From positions 17,068 through 81,067 of the IMG/VR virus record IMGVR_UViG_3300044910_000908: 64,000 nucleotides of DNA; one strand, given 5' to 3'. The translations under genes were made by a program, and so were the position numbers. Under the pieces are notes generated by a model, which saw only the letters and a list, made by a program, of their open reading frames with translations, was not told the origin of the DNA and ran no database searches. Positions 1,146 to 62,257 of this stretch are shown piece by piece; positions within the stretch are counted from its first letter, which is position 1; each line of letters opens with the position of its first letter. The stretch comes from a virus.

Positions 1146-2351
1146 TTAAAATTGAACAATAGAATTTACTCTAACTGTTTGAGGTGTAGGAACCTCTAAT
1201 CCCATTGCTTCAAATACACCTAATAATTTTGCATTAATCAATTTCTCCTCAGATACTTTCATATCTATTTCAAAATTCTCTAAAAACCATTGAGGAAATT
1301 TTGTTAAATCCGCAGGAAATGCAAGTGTTCTAAAACCAAATTCATTTTCCTTTAATTCAAATACTTTAACTTTATCACCATTCATTATTTTTGGATGAAT
1401 ACTATCTTTATATTCATCAATTAAAACATTATAATTTACTGATGCTCTAATATGTCCAGGAACTGTCATCTTTCCTTTTCCATTCTTAGATTTCATTGGT
1501 TTACCATCTAATTCTGCAAAATAAGCTGAAGTATATAATTCCAAATTATTAGCTGATTTAGATATTCCTAACAAAATTACTTCTGATGGTGAAATTTCTC
1601 CACTTGTAAATAATTCTTTTCGTTGTTCATTAATATAAGTAGATACGTCAGGATAAGACATACCATCTAATATCCTATCAACAACATTCTTTAAAAACTT
1701 CTGAATGACTTTAGGTGTATCAGACTTCTTAATTTCAGAACCCATAGCTTTCATTTTATTAGTTCTAAAACCTTCTAAATCTACAACTTTTGCCATATAT
1801 TTTTTACGAGCTTGAAATAATGCTCGTTCAGCAACAATCTCTCTTCCACAAACAATTAATTTATCATATCCTGGTTGACAACAAAATGCATCAATCATGA
1901 ATTGAGGAAAACTTTCATTTATACCATCAGCAACAGCATCAGCAATTAATACAGCTTCTTCAATATCATTTGCACCAGTAGCAAAATAGGCCGAATCGGT
2001 GTCAGAATAGATAATTGTATGATTGTTAGCATTGTAAATATTTTGTACAACTTTTTTATCTAAATTAAAACTCTTAACTAAATTGGCTTCTTCTCCTGAT
2101 ATTAAATATGCAGCAGTATTTGCCATATGAGAAGTAATAGCTCTACCTGTAAAAGTAACAGAAGCCCCAATCATCTCATCAACGCCCCATCGAAAACCTT
2201 TTGCTAGTAAAGCTCCATAAGCTGAATTTAAAGAAATCTTTTTTGTAAGTTGTAATAAATCATAATGTTCTACTTGATGTTTAGCTTCTTTAATTTGTTC
2301 AGCAATTTCAGGTGTATAAAATTTTCCATCTATTTCAATTAATTTTGACAT
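1146..2351 (-). CDS. Family B DNA polymerase, C-terminal subunit of a split gp43-like enzyme
   Basis: Motif B KISLNSAYG, motif C YSDTDS, ARKKY; lacks the exonuclease domain and motif A (DxxSLYP). Confidence 0.92.
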   Translation of the reverse strand: MSKLIEIDGKFYTPEIAEQIKEAKHQVEHYDLLQLTKKISLNSAYGALLAKGFRWGVDEMIGASVTFTGRAITSHMANTAAYLISGEEANLVKSFNLDKKVVQNIYNANNHTIIYSDTDSAYFATGANDIEEAVLIADAVADGINESFPQFMIDAFCCQPGYDKLIVCGREIVAERALFQARKKYMAKVVDLEGFRTNKMKAMGSEIKKSDTPKVIQKFLKNVVDRILDGMSYPDVSTYINEQRKELFTSGEISPSEVILLGISKSANNLELYTSAYFAELDGKPMKSKNGKGKMTVPGHIRASVNYNVLIDEYKDSIHPKIMNGDKVKVFELKENEFGFRTLAFPADLTKFPQWFLENFEIDMKVSEEKLINAKLLGVFEAMGLEVPTPQTVRVNSIVQF

Positions 2352-2378
2352 AATTCTCCCATATTTTAATATTATTCT

Positions 2379-2407
2379 ATTATATCATAATTTATTTGAT
2401 TTGTAAA
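2379..2407 (-). promoter_or_regulatory. Early (sigma70-type) promoter for the polymerase subunit
   Basis: TTTACA-N17-TATAAT on the minus strand just upstream of the ATG at 2351. Confidence 0.65.
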
Positions 2408-2496
2408 TAATTACATGTCACAGAATTACTTCATACAGTTCTAAACATATTCTCATCAATAATCTGGAATATGCATTTAAGTTCAAAGCGATTTTA

Positions 2497-3030
2497 TTAA
2501 TCTCTAACAACAATAACGTCTGGAATAGTGTGAACTAAATGATTAACAGCAACAAAATCAGTATCAACACCTGTTAAGTCATGGAGATATTTTAATGCTT
2601 TTAATAATTGTTCTTTACCATGTTCAGAGTTTACAACAATTTCATAAATTTCTAATGGTTCAGCAACTTGATAATTATATTTTTTTGAATATCGTTTTAA
2701 TCCACTAGGATATTTAATTCCTTCAAACAGTAATGTTTCAGCCCAACGAGGATACTGTTCTTCATCTAAAATAACCTGCAAAACTTGAGAAATAACATTA
2801 CTATGTGTAATTTCTTTATCAAAAAAAGTATAATTACTTTTTGATATTTGTATTGCTAAATCATGCAAAGCAAGATTATTGCCTAATTGTTTATCATATG
2901 TTTTTTCTTTTGGAGAACAGTATGAAACGCCAAAAAATAAATTACCATTTATGATTTGAGAAGCAATAGTTATTACACCATTTTTTTCAGCTTGCCGATG
3001 TCCCAATCTTGAAATTTTTACGTTACCCAT
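2497..3030 (-). CDS. Hypothetical protein
   Basis: 177 aa ORF with GAGG RBS. Confidence 0.6.
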   Translation of the reverse strand: MGNVKISRLGHRQAEKNGVITIASQIINGNLFFGVSYCSPKEKTYDKQLGNNLALHDLAIQISKSNYTFFDKEITHSNVISQVLQVILDEEQYPRWAETLLFEGIKYPSGLKRYSKKYNYQVAEPLEIYEIVVNSEHGKEQLLKALKYLHDLTGVDTDFVAVNHLVHTIPDVIVVRD

Positions 3031-3049
3031 TTTATATTTCCTCTGTTTA

Positions 3050-3553
3050 TTAATTATCTAATATTGTATCACTGCTATGTTTACAACCTTCATAATAACC
3101 ATTGCAATAATTTTCTCGTTGTATATCTTTTATTAATTGTTTTAATTCTTTTACACAATCAGTTGAATTACTAATTTTAACATTATTATCATATAAAAAT
3201 TGAATAATTTCTGCATGTGTAACAACTTTATATTCTGGTTGCGTCAATATTAAAGAAAAATCACATCCTTGCCCACCCAATCCAGCGTATTCAATCGTTA
3301 CTTCATTATCAAATATATTAAGAATATCACTGAAGAATTGATTTGCATTTTGTTCATCTAAACAACATTTTTGAACAGCAATTTCAAATGAAAATCCACT
3401 TTCCATTAAATGTAAAGTATGATAAATGCAACAAAATTTTAAAAATACTGTAGCATCATCCCAAAATTCTTTCCAAGCATCCCAATCTTCTTCTGTAATA
3501 TTAGGGTCAAATGTTAATGAATATTTTAAAGGAGTATTAATTAATAATTTCAT
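3050..3553 (-). CDS. Hypothetical protein
   Basis: 167 aa ORF in the minus-strand gene run. Confidence 0.55.
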   Translation of the reverse strand: MKLLINTPLKYSLTFDPNITEEDWDAWKEFWDDATVFLKFCCIYHTLHLMESGFSFEIAVQKCCLDEQNANQFFSDILNIFDNEVTIEYAGLGGQGCDFSLILTQPEYKVVTHAEIIQFLYDNNVKISNSTDCVKELKQLIKDIQRENYCNGYYEGCKHSSDTILDN

Positions 3554-4935: not shown

Positions 4936-5436
4936 TCACATTTTTGAAGAATGTAAATAATTTAAAATATCAAATTTAATTTTTGTCATTTCCCAATCAC
5001 CTGTATGTAAAATACCATTTCCACCCGCTTTATCCCATTCTTTAATATTCGTTTCTGCATCATCAATTAAAATATCACCTTTTGTATTAATCCAATGCTT
5101 TTTATTTCTTCCGCCTAATACAGTATGAACTTGAATATCAAAAGATAAATTTAATTTAACCCATTCTTTTTTATCATCTACTGCAGATAATAATTGTTGA
5201 GTTGGCAATGGAATAGCTGTTAAAACAAAAATATCATATTCATTTTTAAAAGACCAAATATAATCAAAGAATTCTTTAGCTCCAGGTAATACATCTAAAT
5301 GCAAAAATAAATTAGGAACTAATTCTAAACTACTCCAAGAAGTATGCGGAGAATAAGGTTGTCCAGTATGTTCTTTTACAAATTTATGGAAATCAGCAAA
5401 ACATCCATCAAGATCTAATGCAATTCTTCGTTTCAT
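4936..5436 (-). CDS. 5'(3')-deoxyribonucleotidase, HAD superfamily
   Basis: DLDGCFADF motif I, VLTA, ILIDD motif IV. Confidence 0.8.
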   Translation of the reverse strand: MKRRIALDLDGCFADFHKFVKEHTGQPYSPHTSWSSLELVPNLFLHLDVLPGAKEFFDYIWSFKNEYDIFVLTAIPLPTQQLLSAVDDKKEWVKLNLSFDIQVHTVLGGRNKKHWINTKGDILIDDAETNIKEWDKAGGNGILHTGDWEMTKIKFDILNYLHSSKM

Positions 5437-5650: not shown

Positions 5651-6190
5651 TTAAGATAATAATCCATTAAGAGAAACACAACCATTTGGCAATACATAAG
5701 TATTTGATTGTGTTACTATTTCCCATGTTTGGTGCAAAGGTTTTATTACTTCTATTTTATCAACTTTTAAATAACTTTGTATAGTTTGAATAATTTCTTC
5801 TTGATTATTTCTGATATGAGTTAAATGAACTATTTCATCACCTTCAGAAAGATTTCTAATTTTAATGAAATCATCTTCTCTTGAGGGATAATGTGCAAGT
5901 AGTTTATGGTCTCCAGTGAAACCATATTCGGAATCGTCTTCAAATACAACTTTATAGATAGTAGTTAAACCATTATAAAAAACATGTTCAACTAATTCAT
6001 CACCATCTTCTCCAATTACATAAATTGGTTGAGGTAATTCATAAATGCGTTTAGATAATTCTGAAAATTGACAATTTTGAAATTCAAAATTTAATTCTCT
6101 AAATAATTGAACAATACTAATAGCTCTACTATCAGCCAAATTTAATTTATTACAACAATCATATAAAGCACTTGTTCCACTAGCTTGCAT
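5651..6190 (-). CDS. Stand-alone Hint (intein-like) domain protein
   Basis: Block B FTGDHKLL, LSEGDEI, block F TWEIVT, block G-like YVLPNGCVSLN. Confidence 0.7.
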   Translation of the reverse strand: MQASGTSALYDCCNKLNLADSRAISIVQLFRELNFEFQNCQFSELSKRIYELPQPIYVIGEDGDELVEHVFYNGLTTIYKVVFEDDSEYGFTGDHKLLAHYPSREDDFIKIRNLSEGDEIVHLTHIRNNQEEIIQTIQSYLKVDKIEVIKPLHQTWEIVTQSNTYVLPNGCVSLNGLLS

Positions 6191-6206: not shown

Positions 6207-7256
6207 TTAAAGAAATTTGGAAAAATCAATATCAGAAATGTCATTTACAATTGAATTAGATAGATAACTACTAATTTCAGTTTCTTGAGGAGCAACTTGA
6301 ACATTACTAGAATTAAAATGTTTTTCAATCCATGGTAATGGATGACTAATTTTTGCATTTTCAGAAGATAAACCGAGAGTTTTTAATTGTTTTGGTAATA
6401 GATAACCATCAATATAAGAAGTCAAAATTTCCTCATTTAAACCAATAATAGAACCATCTTTAAATAAATGTTGTGCCCAAATAATTTCTTGTTCAGCAGC
6501 GGATTTGAAAATATTTTTAGCTTTTTCTCTATTATCTCCTATAATTTGAATAAATTCTGGGTCATCTTTAGGAAGTAATTTCAATGTATGCTGAACAAAT
6601 GCTAAATGTTGAATTTCATCTCTAGCGATTAATTTTACAATTTTTCCAGAACCTTCTACTTTAGCTCTTTCAACGAATGAAAATGTTGATGCAAATGACA
6701 CATAAAAACGAATTGCTTCTAATGCATTAGCCGCTATTAATGCTAGATATAAATTTTCCTTATTAGGATTATTCACCATTTGATCATAGACTTTCGTGAC
6801 ATCATTTGCACAATCAGCTATTTCTTTTATATTAGGCATGTCATCTATAACAACTTTAGGGTCATTATAAATTGCTCTCAAAATATAAGTATAAGACATT
6901 GAATGAATACTTTCCATGAAAGACCACGTTAATAAACAATTTTCCATGGATGGATCTGTACAATGTGGCAAAAATACTAACGCTGGAGCTCTTCCTTGAA
7001 TGCTATCTAACAAAATCTGTCTTTTTAGATTTTCAGTAAAAACAAATTGTTCAACATCAGTTAATGAATTAAATGATCTTTTTTCTTGGCTCATATCTAT
7101 TTCATTTGGGCGCCAGAAAAAACTTTGCATTTTTTCATTTAATTTATCTAAAATTTCATATCTTGTAATCTCATATCGAGAAATACCATGACCACATTCT
7201 CCAAAAAATAATTTATCTGGATGAACTGACATTGTAAAAACTGAATTATTTGGCAT
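6207..7256 (-). CDS. nrdB: Ribonucleotide reductase class Ia beta subunit
   Basis: FFWRPNEI, LLDSIQG, ESIHSMSY (radical Tyr), EAIRFY, RDEIQH, VAPQETE. Confidence 0.97.
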   Translation of the reverse strand: MPNNSVFTMSVHPDKLFFGECGHGISRYEITRYEILDKLNEKMQSFFWRPNEIDMSQEKRSFNSLTDVEQFVFTENLKRQILLDSIQGRAPALVFLPHCTDPSMENCLLTWSFMESIHSMSYTYILRAIYNDPKVVIDDMPNIKEIADCANDVTKVYDQMVNNPNKENLYLALIAANALEAIRFYVSFASTFSFVERAKVEGSGKIVKLIARDEIQHLAFVQHTLKLLPKDDPEFIQIIGDNREKAKNIFKSAAEQEIIWAQHLFKDGSIIGLNEEILTSYIDGYLLPKQLKTLGLSSENAKISHPLPWIEKHFNSSNVQVAPQETEISSYLSNSIVNDISDIDFSKFL

Positions 7257-7274: not shown

Positions 7275-9533
7275 TTAAACTACACAAGCACCTGATTTAC
7301 AACCACCTTCTTCAATATTATCAGAAGAACCATCATTAACTTGATTGTAATACATAGTACACATTCCCATTTTATATGCAAATAATAAATCCTCAATCAA
7401 TCTTGACATTTTAATTTCACCTTTAGAAGGGTCATACGAAGTGTTGCATGAAATAAATTGATCATTATATTTCTGAAATACTGCAGTAGTTTTCAAGTAA
7501 TCTTTACTATCAACATTCCACAATGTTTCATATAAATGATTTAATTTGTTATATTCAGGAACAACTTGTGGTAATACTCCATCTTTAGAACCTTTAATAC
7601 TAATTAAATCTCTAGGAGGTTCAATACCATTTGTCTCATTAGAAATTTGAGATGATGTTTCACTTGGAAAAATTGTTGATAATGTTGCATTTCTAATACC
7701 ATATTTTTTCAAATCTTCTTTTAATTCATCCCATGGCATTAATGGAGCATTAACTGGAATTTTATTTAAATCTCTCGGAACAATACCATCATGATATTTT
7801 GTTCTTAATTCAATAGAACCAAATTCTTTTGCTAATTGATTAGATGCTTGAATTAAATAAAAATTCTGTTTCTCAATCATTGTTTCAGTCGCAAGTAATG
7901 CTTCATCTGTACCCCATTGTAATCTTCCTTTTGCTAACCAATGAGCATAACCAATTAAACCAATGCCTAATGGACGACATAATTTAGTAGCTCTTTCAGC
8001 AGCATCAATTGGATATTCTTGATAATCTAATAAAGCATCTAAAGCTCTAACACCCATTTCACAACAATCTTTTAAAATTCTTTCTTCTTTTTCAGATAAA
8101 TTCTTACTAAATTTACCCCAATTAGTAGCTAATAATGTACATAAATTTAATAATGAATTACCATCTCCAAGCGGAGTTGTTCGCTGTCCAATTTCCGTAC
8201 ATAAATTAGTCATATAAACTGGTTCATAATAAGGTGTTTGATAATTGACATTATCAGCATTAAAAATATAAATACGTCCAGTTTCATATCTTTCATTCAT
8301 TAATTTTGTAAAGTATTCAAATGCAGGAATAGTTTTCTTTACAACTTTATTTGAGTTTTCATATTTTTCATATAATTCTTCAAATTTTTCTAAATCTGGA
8401 GAATAAAAAGCTTCATATAAATCTGGAACTTCTTCAGGGCTAAATAATGTAATATTTCCACCTGTGATTAATCTTTTATACATTGTTCCATTAAGAGCAA
8501 CAACATAATCTAAAGTTCTAATACGAGTTTCTTCAGTTCCTTTATTGTTTTTTAATTCAATTAATTTTTCAAATTCTAAATGCCATCCAGGATAATTAAT
8601 AGAAGCTGAAGCCGACCTAATTCCACCTTGCGATACTGCTCTTAAAGAAGAATTCATTAATTTTAAATAAGGAATAACACCAGTTGTAATAGCATCTCCT
8701 TGTCTAACTTGTTGTCCTTCAGCACGTAATCTTCCAATATTTAAACCAATACCAGCTTTTCTTGAAGCATAATCAATAATAGCTGCTGATGTAGCTTTAA
8801 TAGAATTTAAGCTATCACCACAATCCATTAATGTGCAAGAAGAAAATTGTTTTACATTAGTTCTTAATCCAGCCATAATAGGTGTAGGAAGAGAAATATA
8901 ATGTTGGCTAACCAAATCATAAAATTTCTTGATGTATCCCATACGAGTAGCAATTGGGTACGCGCCAAATAATAATGCTGGAACTAAAATATAAGGGAAT
9001 TGAAATGTTTCATATACATGTTTAGTTTTTCTATTTTGAACTAAATATTTTTTACGCATTTGTTCTGAACCTGCATAACGAAATAAATCATCTCTATTAT
9101 GGTCAATCATATCATTTAAAATATTAAATTCTTCTTCATTATAAAATTCTAATAATTCTTTAGTATAAACACCTAATGCCACATTTTTCTTAACAACATC
9201 ATATAAATGAGGTGGTGTATTAGAACCAAATGCTTCTTTACGAATAGATAACCAATTTAATCTAGCAGCAACATGATCATAATTTGGAGTATCTTCATTA
9301 ATTAAATCTGCAGATGCTTTAATTAAAGTTTGGTGAATTGAAGAAGTTTTAATATTTGGAACGAAATGTGGATTAGCTGTCATTTCAATTTGAGAAACAG
9401 ATACGCCTTTAATTGGTGGAAAAATATCATCTCCATTACATGCCCAATTAATCACTTGATGAATTTTAGAAAGATCTAATAGTTCTTTTGTTCCATTTCG
9501 TTTAGTAACAAATATATTACTGGTTTGAGTCAT
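7275..9533 (-). CDS. nrdA: Ribonucleotide reductase class Ia alpha subunit
   Basis: ATP cone VTKRNG, PTPIMAG, QFSSC, TNLCTEI, PSETSS, C-terminal CKSGAC; uninterrupted. Confidence 0.97.
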   Translation of the reverse strand: MTQTSNIFVTKRNGTKELLDLSKIHQVINWACNGDDIFPPIKGVSVSQIEMTANPHFVPNIKTSSIHQTLIKASADLINEDTPNYDHVAARLNWLSIRKEAFGSNTPPHLYDVVKKNVALGVYTKELLEFYNEEEFNILNDMIDHNRDDLFRYAGSEQMRKKYLVQNRKTKHVYETFQFPYILVPALLFGAYPIATRMGYIKKFYDLVSQHYISLPTPIMAGLRTNVKQFSSCTLMDCGDSLNSIKATSAAIIDYASRKAGIGLNIGRLRAEGQQVRQGDAITTGVIPYLKLMNSSLRAVSQGGIRSASASINYPGWHLEFEKLIELKNNKGTEETRIRTLDYVVALNGTMYKRLITGGNITLFSPEEVPDLYEAFYSPDLEKFEELYEKYENSNKVVKKTIPAFEYFTKLMNERYETGRIYIFNADNVNYQTPYYEPVYMTNLCTEIGQRTTPLGDGNSLLNLCTLLATNWGKFSKNLSEKEERILKDCCEMGVRALDALLDYQEYPIDAAERATKLCRPLGIGLIGYAHWLAKGRLQWGTDEALLATETMIEKQNFYLIQASNQLAKEFGSIELRTKYHDGIVPRDLNKIPVNAPLMPWDELKEDLKKYGIRNATLSTIFPSETSSQISNETNGIEPPRDLISIKGSKDGVLPQVVPEYNKLNHLYETLWNVDSKDYLKTTAVFQKYNDQFISCNTSYDPSKGEIKMSRLIEDLLFAYKMGMCTMYYNQVNDGSSDNIEEGGCKSGACVV

Positions 9534-9559: not shown

Positions 9560-10864
9560 TTAAAATTGAATAATTTGCTTTTGTTTGTTAATATTACAAA
9601 ATTCAGCATCGTTTGTGATTTGCGAAATAGGAGCCATGGCTCTTTTTAAAGCGGTTGTTTTATTTGTTTTATTTCTTTCAAAAACATTAAATTGGCAACA
9701 ACTTATTTCTATACCAAAGGTAGTAAAACGACCTAATTCTGAAGCTTCTTTTAAATGGATTTCAGCTTGAGTATTTCCAGCTATTTCAAAAAAATCTTCT
9801 TGATGATTTCTAATAGCTATAATATATTTCATCATTGCTTCAGTATTAATTGGCATATCAGGAAATAGTTTTTTTAATGTTGCAGTAGCACCAGGACCAG
9901 CAACAACATAATCAGCATTTTCATCTAAATTTCCATGTGTTAAACTTTTGTCTTTATTTTGTAATTTTTTAAAATCATCATAATATTCAGCATCTATTAA
10001 TTCAGAACTACCAATTCCTGGCATCCTAGCTAAGTTTGAAGAAAAATGATATCCATAATAATTTCCAATTCCTCTTTCAAGAGTTAAAAAATTAAAAGAT
10101 TGTTCCATTGTTGGTTTATTCTTAAAAAATGGCACCCATTTTTTAGATAAATATTTGACCCAATGAATCATATCAGATGGACGCATTTTTCTTTCTTGGT
10201 GTTCTTTTAATAAATTTAATTCAGTGATTAATTTATTACTGTTATTAATATTTAGTATGTCAATAGATGATGGATTTTCTCTACAATAATTTCTAGCAGC
10301 TATTTGCAAACTTGTTCTTAATTCTGTTGTTCCCCATATTTTTTCTTTATTAGCAAAAGCTTTTTCTACATTAGACATTAATGTAAATTCATAATCCATA
10401 TCTTTTTCTAATAAATCAAAATTGATATATTTTGAATTAGTTGGAATTAAATAATTTAAATCTTCAGCAGTTCCTGTAATAATATCTAAAGTTCTTGCTG
10501 GTCCATAAAATTTTACAATTGCAGAATTTATTAGTTTATCCTCAAAACTAACATTATCTTCATAATATAAATGGGAATTTAACCAAATAATTTCATCATG
10601 AAATGATCTATTTGGATGGAAGTATGGAACAGGTTTATTATCAACAACAAAACCATATCCAAATCCTTTTTGATGTTTATATAATTTTGAAATATAATCT
10701 TCAAAAGTTTTAGCTTGCTGTTTATTTATCCTTACTTCCCATTCCCGCTTATTGAATTCTTTTATAAAATTTGCTAATTGTTTTTTTACTGTTTTATCTG
10801 CAAATGACAATATTTTTTCATCAGACATATTTTTAATATCGTTGTTAGAAAGTAATGATGCCAT
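9560..10864 (-). CDS. aGPT-PPlase / amino acid:DNA transferase-like DNA base-hypermodification enzyme
   Basis: YFHPNRSFHDE, HhH-like RGIGNYYGY, YVVAGPGA and C-terminal IEISCCQF resemble the glycosylase-fold aGPT-PPlase family. Confidence 0.65.
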   Translation of the reverse strand: MASLLSNNDIKNMSDEKILSFADKTVKKQLANFIKEFNKREWEVRINKQQAKTFEDYISKLYKHQKGFGYGFVVDNKPVPYFHPNRSFHDEIIWLNSHLYYEDNVSFEDKLINSAIVKFYGPARTLDIITGTAEDLNYLIPTNSKYINFDLLEKDMDYEFTLMSNVEKAFANKEKIWGTTELRTSLQIAARNYCRENPSSIDILNINNSNKLITELNLLKEHQERKMRPSDMIHWVKYLSKKWVPFFKNKPTMEQSFNFLTLERGIGNYYGYHFSSNLARMPGIGSSELIDAEYYDDFKKLQNKDKSLTHGNLDENADYVVAGPGATATLKKLFPDMPINTEAMMKYIIAIRNHQEDFFEIAGNTQAEIHLKEASELGRFTTFGIEISCCQFNVFERNKTNKTTALKRAMAPISQITNDAEFCNINKQKQIIQF

Positions 10865-11618
10865 TTATTTTTTTTCTCCGTTTCCAAATTCTAGGTAAAC
10901 TATTAAAACCTTTATGAACGAGTTCAAATTCTTCGTTTATTATTTGTTTTGCTAATCGTTGGGTTTGTCTACCAGTTAAAATAGTAGTATCATATTTATA
11001 TTTTTCAAAATGGCCATAACACGAAGGTGAACTAAAGCTTGCAGTTTCTATTAAATAGTTAGTTGACAAATCCATACAACTTTTTATAAAATCAAATGGG
11101 TCCTCAAAATGTTCAAAGGTTTCTAAACACAATACAACATCAAACTTTTCATCTTTTGGAAATTCATAAAAATTAATATTTTTATTATCAGAATGTAAAG
11201 AACACCATTTTTCACAACAAGAAATCTGATGGTCTACATTATTGAATGTATAAACTTGTTTAAAATTTGATTGCAATAATTTTTCAGTTGTAAATCCTAA
11301 ACCATTAAAAATATCAATAATAGAATATTCAGATAAATCAATATTATTTTTCTTAAAATAATTATTGAGTGCCCAAATACTATTATTTGAAGATACAAAA
11401 AAGCACCAAATACATTCTAATAAGTAATCTGTGGTAGAATAGATAGAAAAATCTGTTCTTTTAGAATTTACCCATAATTCACCTAATTTATCTGAATTTA
11501 TTTTTAATGCATTATAAAGTTCTTTTTTTGAATTAGAATTTAATAAAATTTCATTATCTTTTAATTCCGGAACACAAGCAATAATATTATCTATAAAATT
11601 TTTATGACTAAGCTTCAT
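10845..11618 (-). CDS. Class I SAM-dependent methyltransferase
   Basis: IIDIFNGLG motif I, FDVVLCLETFEHF. Confidence 0.8.
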   Translation of the reverse strand: MKLSHKNFIDNIIACVPELKDNEILLNSNSKKELYNALKINSDKLGELWVNSKRTDFSIYSTTDYLLECIWCFFVSSNNSIWALNNYFKKNNIDLSEYSIIDIFNGLGFTTEKLLQSNFKQVYTFNNVDHQISCCEKWCSLHSDNKNINFYEFPKDEKFDVVLCLETFEHFEDPFDFIKSCMDLSTNYLIETASFSSPSCYGHFEKYKYDTTILTGRQTQRLAKQIINEEFELVHKGFNSLPRIWKRRKKINGIITF

Positions 11619-12006
11619 GTCTTACATTTTCCTTCTCAGTTAAATTATGATCTAAATGTATTACATTAAGCCAAGAACCACAATTTTGCTCAATTATATT
11701 TTTTTGAATAGGGTCATCTTCAAAATGACAATTAATTTTAATTCCAATATTTTTCAATTTATTCAAAACTTGAGCTTTATGCATTCCAGAACTTTCTCTA
11801 GTTTTTTCATGAAATTGCAAATTGTTAAAAAATACTTTATTAAAAATATTTCTTTTTTCTAGCATTGAAATTGTTTCAACGTATTCTTCAAAAGACCTAC
11901 CAGTAATAATAATATCATTAGGACCTGGATAAACTCCTTCGATAGAGTTATTAATAAAAATAACTCCATCGATATCGTAACTATTAATAGGGGAATGATT
12001 AAACAT
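11608..12006 (-). CDS. Minimal HAD-family phosphatase
   Basis: YDIDGVI, ITGR, conserved Lys (HK), HFEDD. Confidence 0.8.
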   Translation of the reverse strand: MFNHSPINSYDIDGVIFINNSIEGVYPGPNDIIITGRSFEEYVETISMLEKRNIFNKVFFNNLQFHEKTRESSGMHKAQVLNKLKNIGIKINCHFEDDPIQKNIIEQNCGSWLNVIHLDHNLTEKENVRHEA

Positions 12007-13218
12007 TTATTCTCCTATCAATCTCAAATAATCCATTCCACCGCTATTATATTCATCCCATGCAAATTTAATTGCATCTTCAGGAGTTGTTTGTTTACTA
12101 GTAATATCTGTTAATTGACGATTAGCTAATGCTTCGCATTCTTTATAAGATAAATCATAAGTTAATTGTTTAGGCGGAGATTTTTGAGTAAACGCAGAAG
12201 GTCCTCTTAAACAACCAATAATTCCCATTTCTTTTGCAACTTTAATATATCTTAAAGCATCAATTACAACACCACTAGAATTTTCTGAATCTTGAACAGA
12301 TAATTTAACATCTACAGTAATTGGAGCATCTCCAAAACCTCTAAGATGTAAATTAAAGTAAGCAATTTTATTATCTTTTAAATAAGGAATAAAAGTTGAA
12401 GGACCAGCAAATAAAGCATCGTCATCAACAGGAATTCCTCTTAAATCATTTTGTGCTCTAATAACATTTTCTTTTGATACTTTTTTATGTTTTAATCTTG
12501 TTTGAACCATCATATTATTAAAATCGGTATTACCTCCAACGTTTAATTGTTGATGATAATCAACTATCATACCTCGACTAAATGCTAGTTCTTGTAACAT
12601 TTGAGATAAAATAGAAGCTCCAAATTGAGATTTCATATCAGAACCAATATAAGGAATGCCAGCACTAATAAATTTTTCTTCCCATTTAGGATGATTTAAT
12701 GTTAATACAGGAATACAATTCAAAAATGAAATTTTATGTTCAATACATTTTTCAGCCCACCATTCAGTTGCATTTTGAGAACCTACTGGCAAGTAATTGA
12801 TAATAATTTCAACGCCTGTTTCTTTTAGAATTTTATCAATATCACAAACATCTTCATTAGAAATTCTGAAACCCATTCTTTCTGGTTGAGTTTGCATATA
12901 ATCAGAAACACCGTCTAATACTGGACCCATATTAACAATTGGGCCATCAGGAACATCTTTACAAAATACTCTAGCGCAATTAGGTTGAGCAAAAATAGCT
13001 TCGCCTACTGGACGACCAACTTTTCTTCTATCAACATCAAAAGCTGCTACTACTTGAATATCAGCAGGATGATAACCTCCAATTCTGTCAAACATAACAC
13101 CGGGAATAGAATTTCCTTCAGCATCTTCATCATGATCTTTATAATATTCAAGGCCTTGATAAAGAGAAGAAAAACAATTACCAACACCAACTACACAAAC
13201 TTTAATTTTTTTTGACAT
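12007..13218 (-). CDS. ino1: myo-inositol-1-phosphate synthase
   Basis: VGVGNCFSSLYQG NAD-binding motif, NYLPVGS, DMKSQFGA, QLNVGGNTDF, DSENS, KSPP. Confidence 0.95.
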   Translation of the reverse strand: MSKKIKVCVVGVGNCFSSLYQGLEYYKDHDEDAEGNSIPGVMFDRIGGYHPADIQVVAAFDVDRRKVGRPVGEAIFAQPNCARVFCKDVPDGPIVNMGPVLDGVSDYMQTQPERMGFRISNEDVCDIDKILKETGVEIIINYLPVGSQNATEWWAEKCIEHKISFLNCIPVLTLNHPKWEEKFISAGIPYIGSDMKSQFGASILSQMLQELAFSRGMIVDYHQQLNVGGNTDFNNMMVQTRLKHKKVSKENVIRAQNDLRGIPVDDDALFAGPSTFIPYLKDNKIAYFNLHLRGFGDAPITVDVKLSVQDSENSSGVVIDALRYIKVAKEMGIIGCLRGPSAFTQKSPPKQLTYDLSYKECEALANRQLTDITSKQTTPEDAIKFAWDEYNSGGMDYLRLIGE

Positions 13219-13256
13219 ATATAATCCTCTTTTTGTTTAAAACATTATTTACTTTT

Positions 13257-14294
13257 TTAAAATGTTACAATTTTATTAAATTGCTTAATTTCTGGTATAT
13301 TAGGTTTATTATTCCAATAATCCCATCTATGATATAGAGGTGCTAAATGAACATTTTTTGGACGTTCCATATAAGTGTTCATATAATCTATAGGTGATAT
13401 TATAAACATTTCTTGTGTTCTTGTAAACAGTTTCCAATTATTTTTTTCACATAATTGTTTTAATTTATTGTTAAAATATTCCATGATAATAGTTCTTTCT
13501 TTTTGAGAACCATAAAAAGGAGTATTTTCAAAAAATCCAGTTTTTGGAATTCTTCTAGATTCATCTTCAATAGGTAATAATTCAACTAATTCAATATTTT
13601 GAATATTTAAATCTAATAATTGGCGTTCATATTCTAATAATATTTCATCTATTTCTTTTTTTGGATCAGAATTTCTAAGTATATGATGTCTTATATCTAT
13701 ATTACCCCAATAACAAGTAATATAATTTAATTGAGTAATATCTATATTATTATCTTCTATTTCTTTTTTAATTGTTTTTCTTAAAACACCTTTTAAAGTT
13801 CTTCCATCTTTTCTCACAACCATTGCATTTGAATAAAATGTTGAAAAACTATGTGAATCACCAATTATCAATTTATCAGTATTAGGATTTAAATAATATT
13901 CTTTAACTTCTAAACATTTTTTTGAAATTGCTTCCCAATCTATAGCTTTCCAATAATCATCTGCTGTTTTTCTACTTGAACATAGAAATCCATAATCAGG
14001 CATTGGCATATCTAATGATATTAATTTTGCTGAAGTTGTTCCAATTCTTTCATAAAATTTAGCGTTTTCTATTGTAGCACCACCAAATAAATTTAAAGAA
14101 CCTTTAAATTCCATTCCATGATATAAATAAATTTCGTCATAATTATTCCAATCTTCATTATTATGTAAGACTTCAACTTGTTTATTCAATTCTTTAGATA
14201 ATTGACAAGCTCTTAAATGAGCCCATGCATTTTTATGAGAATATTTTGAATTAGTTAATTTTCCACTTACTAAATCTATAGCAATTTTAGTCAT
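13257..14294 (-). CDS. Fusion of a T4 beta-glucosyltransferase-like N-terminal domain and an SGNH/GDSL-like domain
   Basis: MTKIAI, DWNNYDEIYL, SLNLFGG and KLISLD parallel the T4 BGT N-domain as recalled; C-half has IGDSH, GNID and a late His (NVHL). Confidence 0.55.
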   Translation of the reverse strand: MTKIAIDLVSGKLTNSKYSHKNAWAHLRACQLSKELNKQVEVLHNNEDWNNYDEIYLYHGMEFKGSLNLFGGATIENAKFYERIGTTSAKLISLDMPMPDYGFLCSSRKTADDYWKAIDWEAISKKCLEVKEYYLNPNTDKLIIGDSHSFSTFYSNAMVVRKDGRTLKGVLRKTIKKEIEDNNIDITQLNYITCYWGNIDIRHHILRNSDPKKEIDEILLEYERQLLDLNIQNIELVELLPIEDESRRIPKTGFFENTPFYGSQKERTIIMEYFNNKLKQLCEKNNWKLFTRTQEMFIISPIDYMNTYMERPKNVHLAPLYHRWDYWNNKPNIPEIKQFNKIVTF

Positions 14295-14661: not shown

Positions 14662-15426
14662 TTAATCACTGCTATCATAATTATCTCCTGTATATAATCT
14701 AACCATTGACATATTTTGTTCTTTTGAGTATTTTAAAAAAGCACTTAATATACTTTCATTAGGAGCTATTTTACAAGAAGTTCCCACAATCCCACCTTTC
14801 CATGAATTCTTTTTTGGTCCAACTTCTTTGGTATAAGTAATATCTACTTCTCGTTTAACAAAATCTTTTTTGAAATATTGTAACCAACACATTATACCAG
14901 AACCATGAGTCCAAACTCTTTCTTCCAAATAACATGTCACTATATTATCTTCACCATCATAATCTTTAAATTCTATTTTTACAGGTTTAATAGATTGTTT
15001 GATAATTTCTTTAGCACCAAAATCCCATTTTGCTCTTTTTTTAAAACAACTAAAGTCATTATAAATAATTCCTGCTAAAGAACCATCACCATGATATAAT
15101 GACCATTTTGCAAAATGCATTCGTTTCCATGGAATATCAAAAACTTTGCATTGACTTTGACCAAAGCCTTTTTCATCTTGAATTCCATAATAAATTAAAA
15201 AACTATCATCACATGTTGTAATATAATAACTACGAGGACATATTCTACCATAATACTTATTTGAATAACTATTCAATTCTTTTTCAATATGAGCTGGAAT
15301 TATCCAATTTGGAATTTTTAAAAAGTATTCTTTATTATGCCCATATTGAAAGAATATTTTTGCATATTCTCGTTCTTCAGTTCGAGATTTAATACCTATT
15401 CTAAATTCTTTCATTGAAATGACCAA
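14662..15426 (-). CDS. Hypothetical protein
   Basis: 254 aa ORF overlapping its neighbours. Confidence 0.6.
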   Translation of the reverse strand: MVISMKEFRIGIKSRTEEREYAKIFFQYGHNKEYFLKIPNWIIPAHIEKELNSYSNKYYGRICPRSYYITTCDDSFLIYYGIQDEKGFGQSQCKVFDIPWKRMHFAKWSLYHGDGSLAGIIYNDFSCFKKRAKWDFGAKEIIKQSIKPVKIEFKDYDGEDNIVTCYLEERVWTHGSGIMCWLQYFKKDFVKREVDITYTKEVGPKKNSWKGGIVGTSCKIAPNESILSAFLKYSKEQNMSMVRLYTGDNYDSSD

Positions 15427-15737
15427 GAAATATTTAATTCAGCATCTTGGTCATTTTCATAATTAACATCTGGAATTGAAAATGAACGTGCAGCTGTGTG
15501 TTCAGCTTTATAACCATTCTCTTTTAAAGTATTAATAATGCTAATTAAAGCTGAAGATGTCATTTCCCCAGTTATAACGTGTATATATGAATATTTTCCT
15601 TCTGTAGCATATTCCTGAATTTTATCTTCAATAACAGATAAATGTCTTTGAATGATTTGTTGTTCTTTATTTTGAATATGTTTATCGGCCAAATCCCTAG
15701 CAACAGTAGCTTTTAGCTCAAAAGGTTTAGTTATCAT
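15411..15737 (-). CDS. Hypothetical protein
   Basis: 108 aa ORF coupled to the upstream gene. Confidence 0.55.
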   Translation of the reverse strand: MITKPFELKATVARDLADKHIQNKEQQIIQRHLSVIEDKIQEYATEGKYSYIHVITGEMTSSALISIINTLKENGYKAEHTAARSFSIPDVNYENDQDAELNISWSFQ

Positions 15738-16063
15738 ATTTCAACATTCTCAACATTAATAGAACTCCATTTTTTTAATTTCTGGAATTTTGCATATTTA
15801 GCTTCATGTAAATCTTTATTAGATAATTCGTATTCTTGTTGAAGAAGAGAAATCATTGCTAAAGCGTCACCTAATTCTTCAACCAAATGTTGTTTATTTG
15901 TTTTACTAGGTTGATTAAAAGGATGATAAGAATCAATGCCAAATCGCTTGATTTTAGAAATCACCATAATACATTCAGCAAATTCTTCTTGAGCAATATT
16001 TAAGATTTCATTATCCATATAGTATATCCTCTTTAAATTATTTAAAAATAAATTATATACCAA
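15734..16063 (-). CDS. MazG-like nucleotide pyrophosphohydrolase
   Basis: QEEFAEC and EELGDAL acidic helices; true start probably the MDNE Met downstream of the early promoter. Confidence 0.7.
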   Translation of the reverse strand: MVYNLFLNNLKRIYYMDNEILNIAQEEFAECIMVISKIKRFGIDSYHPFNQPSKTNKQHLVEELGDALAMISLLQQEYELSNKDLHEAKYAKFQKLKKWSSINVENVEI

Positions 16064-16088: not shown

Positions 16089-16484
16089 TTATAATAATTT
16101 TAAATGGCCTGTAATTTGATCAATTATCTCAGATGGTGCTGGACCTATAGCAAAACAAGTATATGTAGGTTCATTAAATTCAGTTAATCCTAAATCTTGA
16201 ATTAATGATTTGGGAACTAATGGATAATTATCTTCAGTAAATTTATACAATTCTAATAGTTCTTCTAATGAATCTACACCAACACATATCTTTTTATAAT
16301 TTGTTTCCATCCAAATTCTAACTTCGTTTGGGCATAATATTGTATAAACATTACTTTCAGAATTATCAAATTTTCCACAATTTAAAATTGCTTTTAAAGA
16401 AGCATGAGCTCCTTGAGCAATCATTTTACCTTTGCGCATATTTAAATCTTTACGCATTACAATCACTTGCTTAATAGAACTCAT
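16089..16484 (-). CDS. pth2: Peptidyl-tRNA hydrolase, Pth2 family
   Basis: KQVIVMRKDLNMRKGKMIAQGAHA, KKI, DLGLTE, TCFAIGP, ITGHLKLL. Confidence 0.92.
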   Translation of the reverse strand: MSSIKQVIVMRKDLNMRKGKMIAQGAHASLKAILNCGKFDNSESNVYTILCPNEVRIWMETNYKKICVGVDSLEELLELYKFTEDNYPLVPKSLIQDLGLTEFNEPTYTCFAIGPAPSEIIDQITGHLKLL

Positions 16485-18726: not shown

Positions 18727-19191
18727 TTATCTCCTATAAAATTCAACAACTGTAACATCTTCATTATTAAAAATCTTTTCAATCATTGGTTTAACAGTTC
18801 CATCCCAATCACCACCAGCTAATCCACATCCAATTTGAGGAAATCCAAATCTTAATCCAGAAAATTCCCTTCTAACATTTGATAATGCTTTATGCATTGC
18901 ATCATAATTAACAACAACTTCATTATATCTTAAAGCTGTTCTTTCTTGAATATAAGCATTAACAATAATCAATTTAGCATCAATAACAACATAAGTAAAT
19001 TGGCCATTTAATTTTTCTTCAACTGACAATTTAGAATTCAAATCCATTAAATGGGCTTTTGGCCATTTAGTTTTGATTTGTTTTGCAATACCAGCACCCA
19101 TTATTTTATTAGTATTGCAACCATGAACTAAAACATCAATTTCTTCGTTTTCAGCTAAGGTAATTAAATTACCTGTTATATACTTAATCAT
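18727..19191 (-). CDS. Macrodomain (ADP-ribose / Appr-1''-p processing) protein
   Basis: GNL, VHGCN, MGAGIA, PQIGCGLAGGDW. Confidence 0.9.
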   Translation of the reverse strand: MIKYITGNLITLAENEEIDVLVHGCNTNKIMGAGIAKQIKTKWPKAHLMDLNSKLSVEEKLNGQFTYVVIDAKLIIVNAYIQERTALRYNEVVVNYDAMHKALSNVRREFSGLRFGFPQIGCGLAGGDWDGTVKPMIEKIFNNEDVTVVEFYRR

Positions 19192-49455: not shown

Positions 49456-49559
49456 TGGAGCTCGAGAGAGGATTTGAACCTCCGACCGGCTGATTGTTCA
49501 ATACTCTCTTTAGAAAGCATTCAACAAATCAGCTGCTCTACCAACTGAGCTACTCGAGC
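49456..49559 (-). tRNA. tRNA-Thr(UGU) interrupted by a 28-nt insert after the anticodon
   Basis: GCTCGAG/CTCGAGC acceptor, D arm GCTC-AGTTGGTA-GAGC, GCTGA/TCAGC anticodon stem, T loop TTCAAAT, encoded CCA; removing 49496-49523 gives a canonical 76-nt tRNA. Confidence 0.9.
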
Positions 49560-54165: not shown

Positions 54166-54271
54166 CTGACACGGAGGGACTCGAACCCCCAACCCTCTGA
54201 TTAAGTGAAGAACTCTCTATCCATGAAAGTTCTTGGGTCAGTCAGATGCACTGCCATTGTGCTACATGTCA
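54166..54271 (-). tRNA. tRNA, most likely Asn(GUU) (alternative Lys-CUU), interrupted by a 34-nt insert; no encoded CCA
   Basis: TGACATG/CGTGTCA acceptor (U1-A72, G73), GCAC/GTGC D stem, TCTGA/TCAGA anticodon stem, T loop TTCGAGT; removing 54205-54238 gives loop CU-GUU-AA. Confidence 0.85.
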
Positions 54272-61110: not shown

Positions 61111-61184
61111 TGGAGCAGATTGTGAGAATCAAACTCACTTCTCTTGGGCGGAAACCAAGGGCACAATCAATATACCAAATCTGC
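61111..61184 (-). tRNA. tRNA-Gly(UCC) with atypical D and T loops
   Basis: GCAGATT/AATCTGC acceptor, U73, CCA, CTTGG/CCAAG stem with TT-TCC-GC loop. Confidence 0.8.
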
Positions 61185-62180: not shown

Positions 62181-62257
62181 TGGTACTACCGGTCAGAGTC
62201 GAACTGACACTGTCTGGAATCTAAATCCAGTGCCTCTGCCAATTGGGCTACGGTAGC
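62181..62257 (-). tRNA. tRNA-Leu(UAG) with short variable loop
   Basis: GCTACCG/CGGTAGT acceptor, A73, CCA, CTGGA/TCCAG stem with TT-TAG-AT loop, T loop TTCGACT. Confidence 0.9.

Follow-up and report, generated by a model that had tools for sequence, protein, structure and literature searches.

Thymidine hypermodification in phages M6, ViI, PaMx11, PhiW-14 and SH-Ab 15599 relies on a dUMP hydroxymethylase, a 5-hmdU DNA kinase, an amino-acid:DNA transferase (aGPT-Pplase2/ADDT) and tailoring enzymes. The T-even phages glucosylate 5-hydroxymethylcytosine (hmC) by means of gp42, gp56 and alpha- and beta-glucosyltransferases. RB69 and Stenotrophomonas phage DLP3, with their arabinosyl-hmC / glycosyl-5-hydroxycytosine pathways, have gene 42-type enzymes, no glucosyltransferase and their own precursor supply (PMC6024577; PMC13326640); genes 42 and 56, but no glucosyltransferase, are on record for the Aeromonas phages 44RR, 31 and 25 (PMC2993671). 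Here we describe a cassette from a T4-like jumbo phage of lakes, found in a window of 64,000 nucleotides (the whole stretch of DNA analysed) on an 81-kb contig that represents about 23% of the phage genome. Five intact, closely spaced genes occupy the minus strand at 9560-14294, upstream of nrdA, and the coordinates, abutments and overlaps given for these co-oriented genes in a preliminary description were all reproduced, matching the ORF list of the window exactly:

13257..14294, minus strand, 345 aa: P5, a domain like the N-terminal domain of T4 beta-glucosyltransferase (BGT) plus an SGNH fold
12007..13218, minus strand, 403 aa: MIPS, myo-inositol-3-phosphate synthase of the Ino1 family (PF01658, TIGR03450)
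11608..12006, minus strand, 132 aa: small, capless HAD phosphatase (HAD motifs, phrog_415)
10845..11618, minus strand, 257 aa: class-I SAM methyltransferase, probably an O-methyltransferase (PF08241)
9560..10864, minus strand, 434 aa: P1, all-helical HhH-DNA-glycosylase fold (PF18723, Glu-x3-Cys)
7275-9533: nrdA, then nrdB, both downstream of the cassette

MIPS-HAD-methyltransferase are thus placed between P5 and P1. P5 and MIPS are 38 nt apart, with an AGAGGA ribosome-binding site preceding MIPS; MIPS and HAD abut (12007/12006), and the next two junctions overlap by 11 nt (11618/11608) and 20 nt (10864/10845). The cassette was matched at at least 99% identity in lake metatranscriptome contigs spanning gene junctions, which we grade as weak evidence. 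Genes related to tRNA (PTH2, Thg1, tRNAs) are plentiful on the contig.

On balance, we lean towards reading the five genes as one post-replicative DNA-hypermodification module, with a proposed cyclitol route acting on a 5-hydroxymethyl-pyrimidine; judging from sequence, the cassette would most likely put a phage-made, O-methylated cyclitol onto 5-hydroxymethylcytosine of DNA. Post-replicative transfer to a 5-hydroxymethyl pyrimidine would be shared with the thymidine systems, as are an HhH-glycosylase-fold enzyme with the Glu-x3-Cys motif that is essential there, a small-molecule nucleophile (a hydroxyl in ViI), clustered tailoring enzymes and nearby nucleotide-metabolism genes. Unlike those systems, the cassette has a P1 of PF18723 and not PF18724, no kinase, a linked hydroxymethylase of dCMP type, its own co-substrate synthesis (MIPS, HAD) and an extra BGT-N/SGNH protein that has no counterpart there. 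The T-even phages resemble it in their gp42-type dCMP hydroxymethylase, in the likeness of the P5 N-domain to that of beta-glucosyltransferase and in the presumed result, hmC with a bulky polyol that keeps nucleases off; they differ in that the cassette has no evident GT-B donor domain or UDP-sugar use, carries an SGNH domain instead, adds the Cys/Glu HhH enzyme and would attach a cyclitol by an ether instead of a glycosidic bond. A phage-coded precursor supply that includes a small HAD-type sugar phosphatase recalls RB69 and DLP3, whereas the phosphosugar isomerases, GT-B glycosyltransferases and nucleotide sugars of those phages are replaced here by a cyclase as the supply enzyme, with no glycosyltransferase.

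The P1 protein matches PF18723 over the cut-off (28.9 bits), as do 54/54 members of its family. With its AF2 model (pLDDT 90.9), the best match of the VIA structural search was 8z2m_A, the PaMx11 gp46 5-PmdU glycinyltransferase (Z 8.4, 240 residues aligned), followed by Qng1/DUF2419 (Z 8.3) and then by about 18 HhH glycosylases. The motif E386-I-S-C-C390 aligns with gp46 E243-T-I-L-C247 and gp50 E-H-T-L-C, and E386 and C390 are invariant among 58 homologues of 23-60% identity; in the sister clade the Cys and Glu are essential, and the nucleophile of ViI gp247 is a serine hydroxyl (PMC8989533; PMC11472151). For a helical protein the Z of 8.4 is on the low side, which counts against our preferred reading; Foldseek with the P1 model gave no match, and profile comparisons with gp46 and gp50 scored weakly. 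Membership in the characterised transferase family PF18724/ADDT was rejected, since the sequence assigns P1 to PF18723 (the former aGPT-Pplase clade 1 or 'HMUDK_hel', of PaMx11 gp50 type, named '5-hmdU DNA kinase helical domain' in Pfam). Of the earlier reading of P1 as aGPT-PPlase/transferase-like, the glycosylase-like fold and the Glu/Cys motif therefore stand and the clade does not; the clade is uncharacterised and the transferase role of P1 is putative, which also weighs against our reading.

The near tie between Qng1 and gp46 would suit a different class of substrate, namely free nucleotides or RNA/tRNA, with P1 akin to the queuosine-nucleotide hydrolase Qng1 or acting on hm-dCMP before replication. 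Such a role might also explain the neighbourhood of the cassette (nrdA/nrdB, a MazG-type NTP pyrophosphatase and a 5'-nucleotidase) and the tRNA-related genes of the contig. We nevertheless hold it to be highly improbable: PF18723 occurs solely with DNA hypermodification systems, the Cys/Glu motif of P1 is shared with enzymes of demonstrated activity on DNA, and the N-terminal domain of P5 is like that of a DNA glucosyltransferase.

For P5, the preliminary call of a BGT-like/SGNH fusion was borne out by the AF2 model (pLDDT 92). The N-terminal domain, at about residues 1-135, is structurally similar to the DNA/acceptor-binding domain found at the N terminus of T4 BGT, with a TM of 0.64 over 121 aa to an Atlas cluster that is 100% PF09198; BGT is absent from the BFVD and PDB match lists, the likeness being a single Atlas structural match. 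The C-terminal domain (about 136-333) has an SGNH/GDSL hydrolase fold (Foldseek probability 1.0; VIA Z 13.2, rmsd 3.5, 166 residues aligned). Among 56 homologues of 28-42% identity, G145-D-S-H148, D200, R202, H204, R207, E243, R247, R267 and H316 are invariant; the SGNH DxxH block is without its usual Asp, which we count against our reading. P5 is present in 3/3 of the Aeromonas phages 44RR, 31 and 25. In 44RR2.8t and 31 it forms a single 795-aa protein with P1 (ORF233c, hypothetical, PHROG 17781; 37% identical to P5 and 55% to P1), therefore P5 and P1 work jointly. These phages, with genes 42 and 56 and no glucosyltransferase, thus hold a direct homologue of both proteins, albeit fused, uncharacterised and lacking MIPS, HAD and methyltransferase genes. 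A Na+:solute symporter (SSF 6e-53) precedes the fusion in 44RR, and a UDP-galactopyranose mutase (5e-54) precedes P5 in phage 25; therefore, the sugar or polyol co-substrate would have varied supply routes.

The same data bear on whether the two proteins have exchanged roles, P5 being the catalyst (of activation or transfer) through SGNH Ser147/His316 and P1 only docking DNA or flipping the base, with target and adduct unchanged. In thymidine systems the PF18723 domain lies beside the activating kinase or in one protein with it (PaMx11 gp49/gp50), the Pfam name implies docking for the relatives beside 5-hmdU kinases, and the fusion partner of P1 in 44RR, namely P5, could by analogy be the enzyme. 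Aeromonas phage 25 and Tenacibaculum PTm5 also have P5 but neither P1 nor MIPS, which counts against our own reading, and the many invariant Arg and His of P5 would fit an anionic substrate. Moreover, M6 gp55, probably a member of the clade of P1, is dispensable for the in-vitro reaction (PMC8989533), a further point against our reading. This exchange of roles is unlikely: a Glu-x3-Cys kept by all of 58 homologues, some of them only 23% identical, would be odd in a docking domain, and P1 is the sole candidate group transferase besides P5 in type-C cassettes. To our knowledge, SGNH enzymes carry out acyl transfer and hydrolysis and do not form ethers.

The calls of MIPS, HAD phosphatase and SAM methyltransferase held. 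MIPS matches PF01658 over the cut-off (3.3e-21), shares 65% identity with the ino1 annotated in Stenotrophomonas Menderavirus phages, and has relatives on more than 520 viral contigs. Like bacterial and archaeal Ino1, it aligns with TIGR03450 along its full length (1.4e-94, residues 5-363); unlike them, it reaches 317 bits where the equivalog cut-off is 638, a point against our reading, and it is found among DNA-modification genes instead of those for mycothiol, phospholipid or osmolyte synthesis. The HAD protein resembles the phosphatase domain of T4 polynucleotide kinase (phrog_415 'polynucleotide kinase', 1.6e-8), and its motifs D11-x-D13, T35, K77 and E96-D97-D98 are invariant. In HAD families a capless build usually goes with macromolecular substrates. 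The low MIPS score, this PNK-phosphatase-like build and the exchangeable sugar-supply modules beside P5 might indicate that DNA is modified with something other than free myo-inositol, such as an inositol phosphate, a different cyclitol or sugar from a diverged MIPS, or a phosphodiester link trimmed on DNA by HAD. We find this quite unlikely, given the end-to-end alignment of MIPS, the high conservation of its family (57% mean column identity) and a cassette without a nucleotidyltransferase or other activating enzyme for the phosphodiester route. The methyltransferase (PF08241 7.9e-6, over cut-off; weak UbiG 5.9e-8) has a single relative (46% identity) among 5.8 billion proteins, and its nearest Atlas clusters are viral Methyltransf_11 families. 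Its slot is occupied by FkbM (PF05050) in 58 loci and by a weak P2-like gene in L133 and L136, and in one case (P0061) P1 is fused to a methyltransferase. The gene of the window is lineage-specific by sequence, in a slot conserved across most cassettes, which suggests non-homologous replacement; the proposed methylation thus keeps its slot, usually filled by FkbM, and not its gene.

The P5-MIPS-HAD-P1 arrangement is kept in more than 100 viral contigs (non-redundant, syntenic loci, from uncultured phages), and is for this reason far beyond chance. The suggested co-occurrence of ino1 with the P1 family was found in 62 non-redundant P1-anchored P5-MIPS-HAD-(MTase)-P1 loci; where flanks were good, P1 and P5 occur together in 39/39 and HAD in 38/39. 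HAD adjoins MIPS in 24/26 well-flanked MIPS-anchored loci. Lipid or compatible-solute genes, which the preliminary description had named as the opposing case, were not seen beside viral MIPS in the 26 well-flanked loci; instead, 25/26 lie within DNA-base-modification clusters. These are of three kinds (TET/JBP-ADDT-kinase, FolE-QueC-QueE and P5/P1), with MIPS-HAD inserted between ADDT and kinase, between FolE and QueC, or between P5 and P1. MIPS-HAD pairs are thus found in 7-deazaguanine clusters as well, for which no inositol chemistry is obvious; this counts against our reading. O-methyl-inositols are compatible solutes, and MIPS, HAD and the methyltransferase might form an auxiliary metabolic unit yielding free (methyl-)inositol as osmolyte, signal or precursor while P5 and P1 act separately on hmC DNA. 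Early regions of T4-like phages do mix unrelated small genes, and the MIPS-HAD pair appears mobile because the window MIPS is closest (83-86% identity) to copies in type-B loci, of different context. Even so, such a unit is very unlikely: the pair separates partner genes in DNA-modification clusters of three unrelated kinds, lipid or osmolyte neighbours were not seen, and the genes of the window abut or overlap.

As to the target, a modified pyrimidine had been proposed, and a dCMP-type hydroxymethylase is indeed linked to the cassette. A divergent thymidylate-synthase (TS)-family protein is present in 5/5 large cassette genomes (three 100% complete), and the cassette-adjacent form is 58-61% identical to T-even gp42. 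At the gp42-D179 position all TS homologues of cassette genomes have Asp, whereas ThyA and the PaMx11 dUMP hydroxymethylase have Asn; within the flanks fetched, a gp42-like gene occurs in 15/39 and 3/7 type-C loci. Because these linked homologues are gp42-like with Asp at the specificity site, 5-hmC is a likelier target than 5-hmU. On the 81-kb contig (about 23% of the genome) we found no TS-family gene, ADDT or TET, which counts against our reading; hmC is by analogy the putative target base in this phage. In cassette-bearing genomes we found neither an hmU kinase nor TET nor a T4 glucosyltransferase. The preliminary description had recognised no activating kinase, and the cassette comes without one in complete genomes too, so that substitution has no evident driving force, again to the detriment of our reading.

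The analysis established what the genes encode, how their products fold, which catalytic residues are conserved, the synteny, the fusion and the link to dCMP-hydroxymethylase genes; we infer the chemical steps and their order, the target base in this phage, the role of P5, the protective role and the existence of the base. MIPS would cyclise host glucose-6-phosphate to inositol-3-phosphate, and the small HAD would take off the phosphate while the compound is still free or, as the capless and PNK-like build of the enzyme suggests, once the compound is attached to DNA. P1 would flip out a 5-hydroxymethyl-pyrimidine, most likely 5-hmC supplied by a gp42-type dCMP hydroxymethylase coded elsewhere in the genome. 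Cys390 would attack C6, with Glu386 as the acid, and a cyclitol hydroxyl would take the place of the oxygen that leaves the 5-methylene, so that cytosine would carry the cyclitol through an ether bond. The BGT-like domain of P5 may dock on the same flipped base in cooperation with P1, and its SGNH domain may activate the hydroxymethyl group, in place of the kinase of thymidine systems, or acylate or de-acylate the adduct. The methyltransferase would then O-methylate the cyclitol. The original proposal of a phage-made inositol compound coupled to a modified pyrimidine and then tailored fits all that was testable, its chemistry being conjectural. In the literature searched we found no publication describing the cassette and no inositol-bearing DNA base, the latter counting against our reading.

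Such a bulky base would shield the DNA against restriction and against other nucleases, in the manner of glucosyl-hmC in T4. The recurrence of this five-gene cassette beside hydroxymethylcytosine genes points to a putative sugar-alcohol decoration of phage DNA.

The five-gene cassette is a real, widespread and conserved module, and it probably represents a variant of phage DNA hypermodification. The ORF listing places five open reading frames exactly where the preliminary description had located them, all on the minus strand and with the last four abutting or overlapping as it had said; we name them P5 to P1 in the order of transcription.

Genes of the cassette and the two genes that follow it
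13257-14294, minus strand, P5 (BGT-N-like and SGNH protein), 345 aa
12007-13218, minus strand, MIPS (myo-inositol-phosphate synthase), 403 aa
11608-12006, minus strand, HAD (capless phosphatase, P3), 132 aa
10845-11618, minus strand, methyltransferase (P2), 257 aa
9560-10864, minus strand, P1 (predicted HhH-glycosylase-fold protein), 434 aa
7275-9533, minus strand, nrdA, directly after the cassette
6207-7256, minus strand, nrdB, after nrdA

The spacer between P5 and MIPS measures 38 nt and holds an AGAGGA ribosome-binding site; this gap is too short for a leader RNA, and no Rfam family was found within the cassette. Scanning for promoters and terminators gave no useful signal in DNA of 28% GC (68 sites seen, 76 expected). 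Every gene of the window lies on one strand. The source is an 81-kb IMG/VR viral contig with a CheckV completeness of 23%, the remainder of which is a T4-like replication module, and the nearest relatives of its NrdA (about 48% identity) are from jumbo myoviruses of 285-358 kb. This DNA is also present in lake and freshwater metagenomes from many studies, and a megablast search of the cassette region against 50,697 phage records gave no match. Three lake metatranscriptome runs yielded contigs over the cassette at an identity of at least 99%, with DNA carry-over possible, and one metatranscriptome contig of 2,122 nt spans three gene junctions, which, given the same possible carry-over, is no proof of transcription. 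In the metatranscriptome contigs of runs X6, X8 and X10 the word depth over 12000-13220, the MIPS piece, was 2-3x that of its flanks, against a flat profile in the DNA run. The difference, contig-based and not rankable, hints weakly at a higher MIPS RNA level.

Several neighbours deserve mention in their own right. An Acb3 (CBASS inhibitor) homologue (PF25187, 3.4e-34) is encoded at 14662-15426 (minus strand), upstream of the cassette at a distance of two small ORFs, and therefore an anti-defence gene adjoins a presumed DNA-protection module. Elsewhere on the minus strand are a peptidyl-tRNA hydrolase PTH2 (16089-16484, 3e-32), a weak Macro domain (18727-19191, 9e-4) and a 5'-deoxynucleotidase NT5C (4936-5436, 6.5e-7). 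Directly 3' of nrdB, a 179-aa ORF (5651-6190, minus strand) has a weak, below-cut-off match to the intein-splicing domain PF14890 (5e-4) and may be a free-standing Hint-like remnant; the nrdA of PTm5 carries an intein. ARAGORN called only a tRNA-Gly (61111-61184) and a tRNA-Leu (62181-62257) in the window, and two further minus-strand Rfam tRNA matches without an ARAGORN call, at 49459-49559 (101 nt, 59.5 bits) and 54166-54271 (106 nt, 54.2 bits), could be tRNAs interrupted by an insert or an intron.

The AlphaFold model of P1 is all-helical (pLDDT 90.9). Its best structural match is 8z2m_A, the 5-PmdU glycinyltransferase gp46 of phage PaMx11 (Z 8.4, rmsd 4.9, 240 residues aligned with VIA-align), a Z that is modest given a helical protein and a match that surfaced only with the exhaustive aligner; Foldseek against the PDB returned noise only. 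Behind it come the queuine-salvage hydrolase Qng1/DUF2419 and then about 18 HhH DNA glycosylases, with 20 entries at Z 4-8, and P1 is accordingly modelled with an HhH DNA-glycosylase-like fold, at modest Z. At the sequence level, P1 scores 28.9 bits against PF18723 (HMUDK_hel, named in Pfam for the helical domain of 5-hmdU DNA kinase; the former aGPT-Pplase clade 1), whose curated cut-off is 25. All of the relatives compared (54/54, best 5e-11) match this family and none matches PF18724 (ADDT, aGPT-Pplase clade 2), for which there was no sequence match in P1 or anywhere in the contig. In PaMx11, gp46 matches PF18724 (1.6e-27), and gp50, which adjoins the kinase gp49, matches PF18723 (5.6e-41). 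Of the earlier assignment of 9560-10864 to aGPT-PPlase, HMM and structural comparison thus upheld the glycosylase-like fold and a Glu/Cys motif, while membership of the ADDT family gave way to PF18723.

This motif reads E386-I-S-C-C390 in P1, against E243-T-I-L-C247 in gp46 and E-H-T-L-C in gp50, and E386 and C390 are invariant among 58 homologues with identity down to 23%. The register between P1 and gp46 was set by the motif and a weak hhalign alignment to gp50, not by residue-level structural alignment; the hhalign values for the P1 family (E 0.29 with gp46; E 0.008, probability 5%, with gp50) are too weak for homology and served the register only. Proven transferases have as their catalytic signature a Cys that is essential and, four residues before it, a Glu (PMC8989533), and the signature residues of gp46 are Glu243, Thr244 and Cys247 (PMC11472151). 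P1 is thus like the amino-acid:DNA transferases of PF18724 in its modelled fold and its Glu/Cys motif, but differs from them in its Pfam family and in that searches for a partner 5-hmdU DNA kinase, weak as negatives, were empty. Searches of PDB sequences with P1, P5, HAD and P2, and with family profiles of P1 and HAD, gave nothing useful.

MIPS matches PF01658 (3e-21; 75.9 bits, cut-off 27) and, over residues 5-363 of 403, TIGR03450 (1.4e-94), where its 317 bits lie below the equivalog cut-off of 638. By its catalytic domain and this full-length match, it is predicted to belong to the myo-inositol-3-phosphate synthase family, below equivalog level. In HAD, the motifs D11, D13, T35, K77 and E96-D97-D98 are all invariant across relatives, a cap domain would not fit within its 132 aa, and its only library match is a phage 'polynucleotide kinase' PHROG, that is, of the PNK phosphatase type. 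P2 is a class-I SAM methyltransferase (26.9 bits to the Pfam family Methyltransf_11, cut-off 21.2; TM 0.7-0.8 to Methyltransf_11 clusters in the Atlas), with a single relative among 5.8 billion proteins.

Neither P5 nor any of 52 relatives gave a Pfam match, PF09198 included, even with E values as high as 1 allowed. Its AlphaFold model is confident (pLDDT 92), and residues ~136-333 take an SGNH/GDSL fold (Z 13.2 to 2hsj, rmsd 3.5, 166 residues aligned with VIA), which many GDSL esterases also match. The SGNH blocks G145-D-S-H (I), G197-N-x-D200 (III) and H316 (V) are invariant; the GDSH motif, D200 and H316, together with a set of Arg/His residues, are so across 56 homologues. The Asp of the block V DxxH is missing, position 313 being K, G, R or Q across homologues, and the nearly invariant E310 may replace it. 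Residues 1-135 align over 121 aa, at TM 0.64, with an Atlas cluster consisting 100% of the T4 beta-glucosyltransferase family (PF09198). In structural searches of the PDB and BFVD with P5, matches to the SGNH domain prevailed and BGT was not listed, and we regard the modelled BGT-like N-terminal domain as a lead, not proof. Unlike T4 beta-glucosyltransferase, a GT-B enzyme with a C-terminal UDP-glucose-binding Rossmann domain, P5 has the SGNH fold as its C-terminal half.

A P1-family scan of IMG/VR gave 78 loci, and by tblastn with the window proteins nearly all of these carry P5, MIPS, HAD and P1 together, in the order P5-MIPS-HAD-x-P1 or MIPS-HAD-P1-P5. After deduplication, 39 P1-anchored loci were well flanked (at least 3 kb around MIPS); P1 and P5 are present in all 39 and HAD in 38. 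The P2 methyltransferase of the window is not recurrent, its slot holding an FkbM-family methyltransferase in 58 loci, and in one case an FkbM domain is joined to a P1 homologue in a single protein; on these sequences, the methyltransferase function is retained through non-homologous replacement. In Aeromonas phages 44RR2.8t and 31, P5 and P1 are fused as one protein of 795 aa (PHROG 17781), preceded by a sodium:solute symporter and with no MIPS there. The fusion and the varying neighbour genes therefore argue that P5 and P1 act together and that different genes can stand in for one another in providing them with a small, sugar-like molecule. The main rival explanation of the mechanism exchanges the roles that we favour for the two, with P5 as the catalyst and P1 as its docking partner.

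Some further loci carry features of their own. In Aeromonas phage 25 (L166, 2776-6047), a UDP-galactopyranose mutase (5e-54), a 358-aa protein of unknown function and a stand-alone P5 homologue stand in a row, a hint that hmC is decorated with a galactofuranose-type group in this cultured phage. Of the 46 well-flanked loci of the P5/P1 type (type C below), 14 have a homologue of C5-cytosine DNA methyltransferase immediately after the cassette (12/39 P1-anchored, 2/7 MIPS-anchored). It does so for example after P1 in the fetched loci L023 (12854-14068), L137 and L140-L148, and is found beside a dCMP hydroxymethylase. The jumbo phage locus L091 encodes a Thg1-type tRNA-His guanylyltransferase homologue (13347-14138, 3e-27), a Cpn10-domain protein of 243 aa (12695-13426) and an NAD-dependent DNA ligase (1644-3527).

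Relatives of MIPS are encoded by more than 520 viral contigs, and in the 80 MIPS loci that we fetched, MIPS and HAD are nearly always paired, in one of three contexts.

Gene contexts of viral MIPS-HAD
Type A: TET/JBP, ADDT, MIPS, HAD, P-loop kinase
Type B: GTP cyclohydrolase I, MIPS, HAD, QueC-like, radical-SAM QueE
Type C: P5/P1 type, often gp42-like, P5, MIPS, FkbM, HAD, P1, C5-methylase

These contexts account for 25 of the 26 non-redundant well-flanked MIPS loci. Lipid or compatible-solute neighbours of ino1 would have spoken against a role in DNA modification, and no lipid or osmolyte genes were seen near MIPS in the fetched viral loci. Among cultured phages, Cr30 has type A, RP13 a variant of it, and Mendera/IME-SM1 type B. 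The window MIPS is nearest to type-B copies (83-86% identity), which indicates that the MIPS-HAD pair moves between contexts. In loci L092-L095, L001 (Mendera), L120 and L123, which hold 7-deazaguanine clusters, the pair is flanked by GTP cyclohydrolase I on one side and a QueC-like gene on the other; inositol and 7-deazaguanine bases have no obvious chemical connection.

The recurring neighbours of the cassette are a thymidylate-synthase (TS)-family protein, dCMP deaminase, dUTPase, C5-cytosine methylase and NrdA/B. A divergent TS-family protein is encoded in all five large cassette genomes (three complete), and the cassette-adjacent form is 58-61% identical to the T-even dCMP hydroxymethylase gp42. 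At the position of gp42 D179, where the residue is established in this family as setting the preference for cytosine or uracil, the proteins of all five genomes have Asp, whereas ThyA and the PaMx11 dUMP hydroxymethylase have Asn. P5 is carried by all three of the Aeromonas phages 44RR, 31 and 25, for which Petrov et al. (PMC2993671) recorded genes 42 and 56 and no glucosyltransferase. The gp42-like enzymes with Asp and these gene 42/56 phages carrying P5 therefore make 5-hmC the likely target. The 81-kb contig, about 23% of the genome, contains no TS-family gene or dCMP hydroxymethylase. A MazG-type NTP pyrophosphohydrolase 1.4 kb upstream of the cassette (15734-16063, minus strand; phrog_4856 6.6e-21, weak PF03819) might be an hmC-phage dCTPase of the gene 56 kind.

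That no activating kinase could be recognised holds beyond the window: searches of the five cassette genomes for the PF18748 5-hmdU kinase and the type-A kinase, run without a positive control, were empty. ADDT, TET/JBP and T4 BGT were likewise without a match there, as were kinase, TET/JBP, ADDT and BGT in the contig of the window; with most controls silent, all of these are weak negatives. One candidate for the missing hm-base activator was dropped, as it occurs in only one of the five cassette genomes:

26200-27297, minus strand, PNK-like protein, 365 aa, C-terminal half a T4-PNK-type P-loop kinase (AAA_33 4e-21; PDB 1ly1, 1ltq)

In the sister clade, the Cys adds to pyrimidine C6, the activated 5-CH2-O leaves, and the nucleophile, a serine hydroxyl in ViI, joins the exocyclic methylene (PMC8989533). 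By analogy with this chemistry, from which we infer every step that follows, MIPS and HAD would provide a cyclitol, the methyltransferase would O-methylate it, and P1 would link hmC, at its 5-methylene, to a hydroxyl of the cyclitol. The BGT-like domain of P5 would dock on the flipped base, and P5 may activate the hydroxymethyl group, or else acylate or de-acylate the adduct. This scheme is weakest where it lacks an activation step, where it relies on a still unproven PF18723 activity, and where it leaves the presence of MIPS-HAD within 7-deazaguanine clusters puzzling. We propose only tentatively, judging it somewhat more apt to be wrong than right, that the product is an undescribed base, an O-methylated cyclitol ether-linked on 5-hydroxymethylcytosine, made without a kinase by a PF18723 Cys/Glu HhH enzyme and a BGT-N/SGNH enzyme, with MIPS-HAD as a portable co-substrate unit for three unrelated systems (hmC, TET/ADDT thymine and 7-deazaguanine). 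Such portability, if real, would entail an entire family of DNA bases that bear cyclitols. A literature search found nothing relevant on an inositol-bearing DNA base.

Hypermodified DNA affects how phages fare in their arms race with nucleases, those of restriction and CRISPR among them, and such modifications have yielded tools for labelling DNA and for epigenetic sequencing. Lake viromes and those of other environments commonly contain the module (hundreds of contigs), and since parts of it are present in cultured phages, the question is directly testable. The proposed base could account for how the long-known Aeromonas phages 44RR, 31 and 25 manage with hmC genes yet no glucosyltransferase. 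If our proposal is true, the PF18723 clade and the BGT-N/SGNH enzyme type would each gain a first function. Among natural DNA bases, a cytosine with a cyclitol would form a class of its own and a new one, carrying a carbocyclic polyol through an ether rather than a glycoside or amine.
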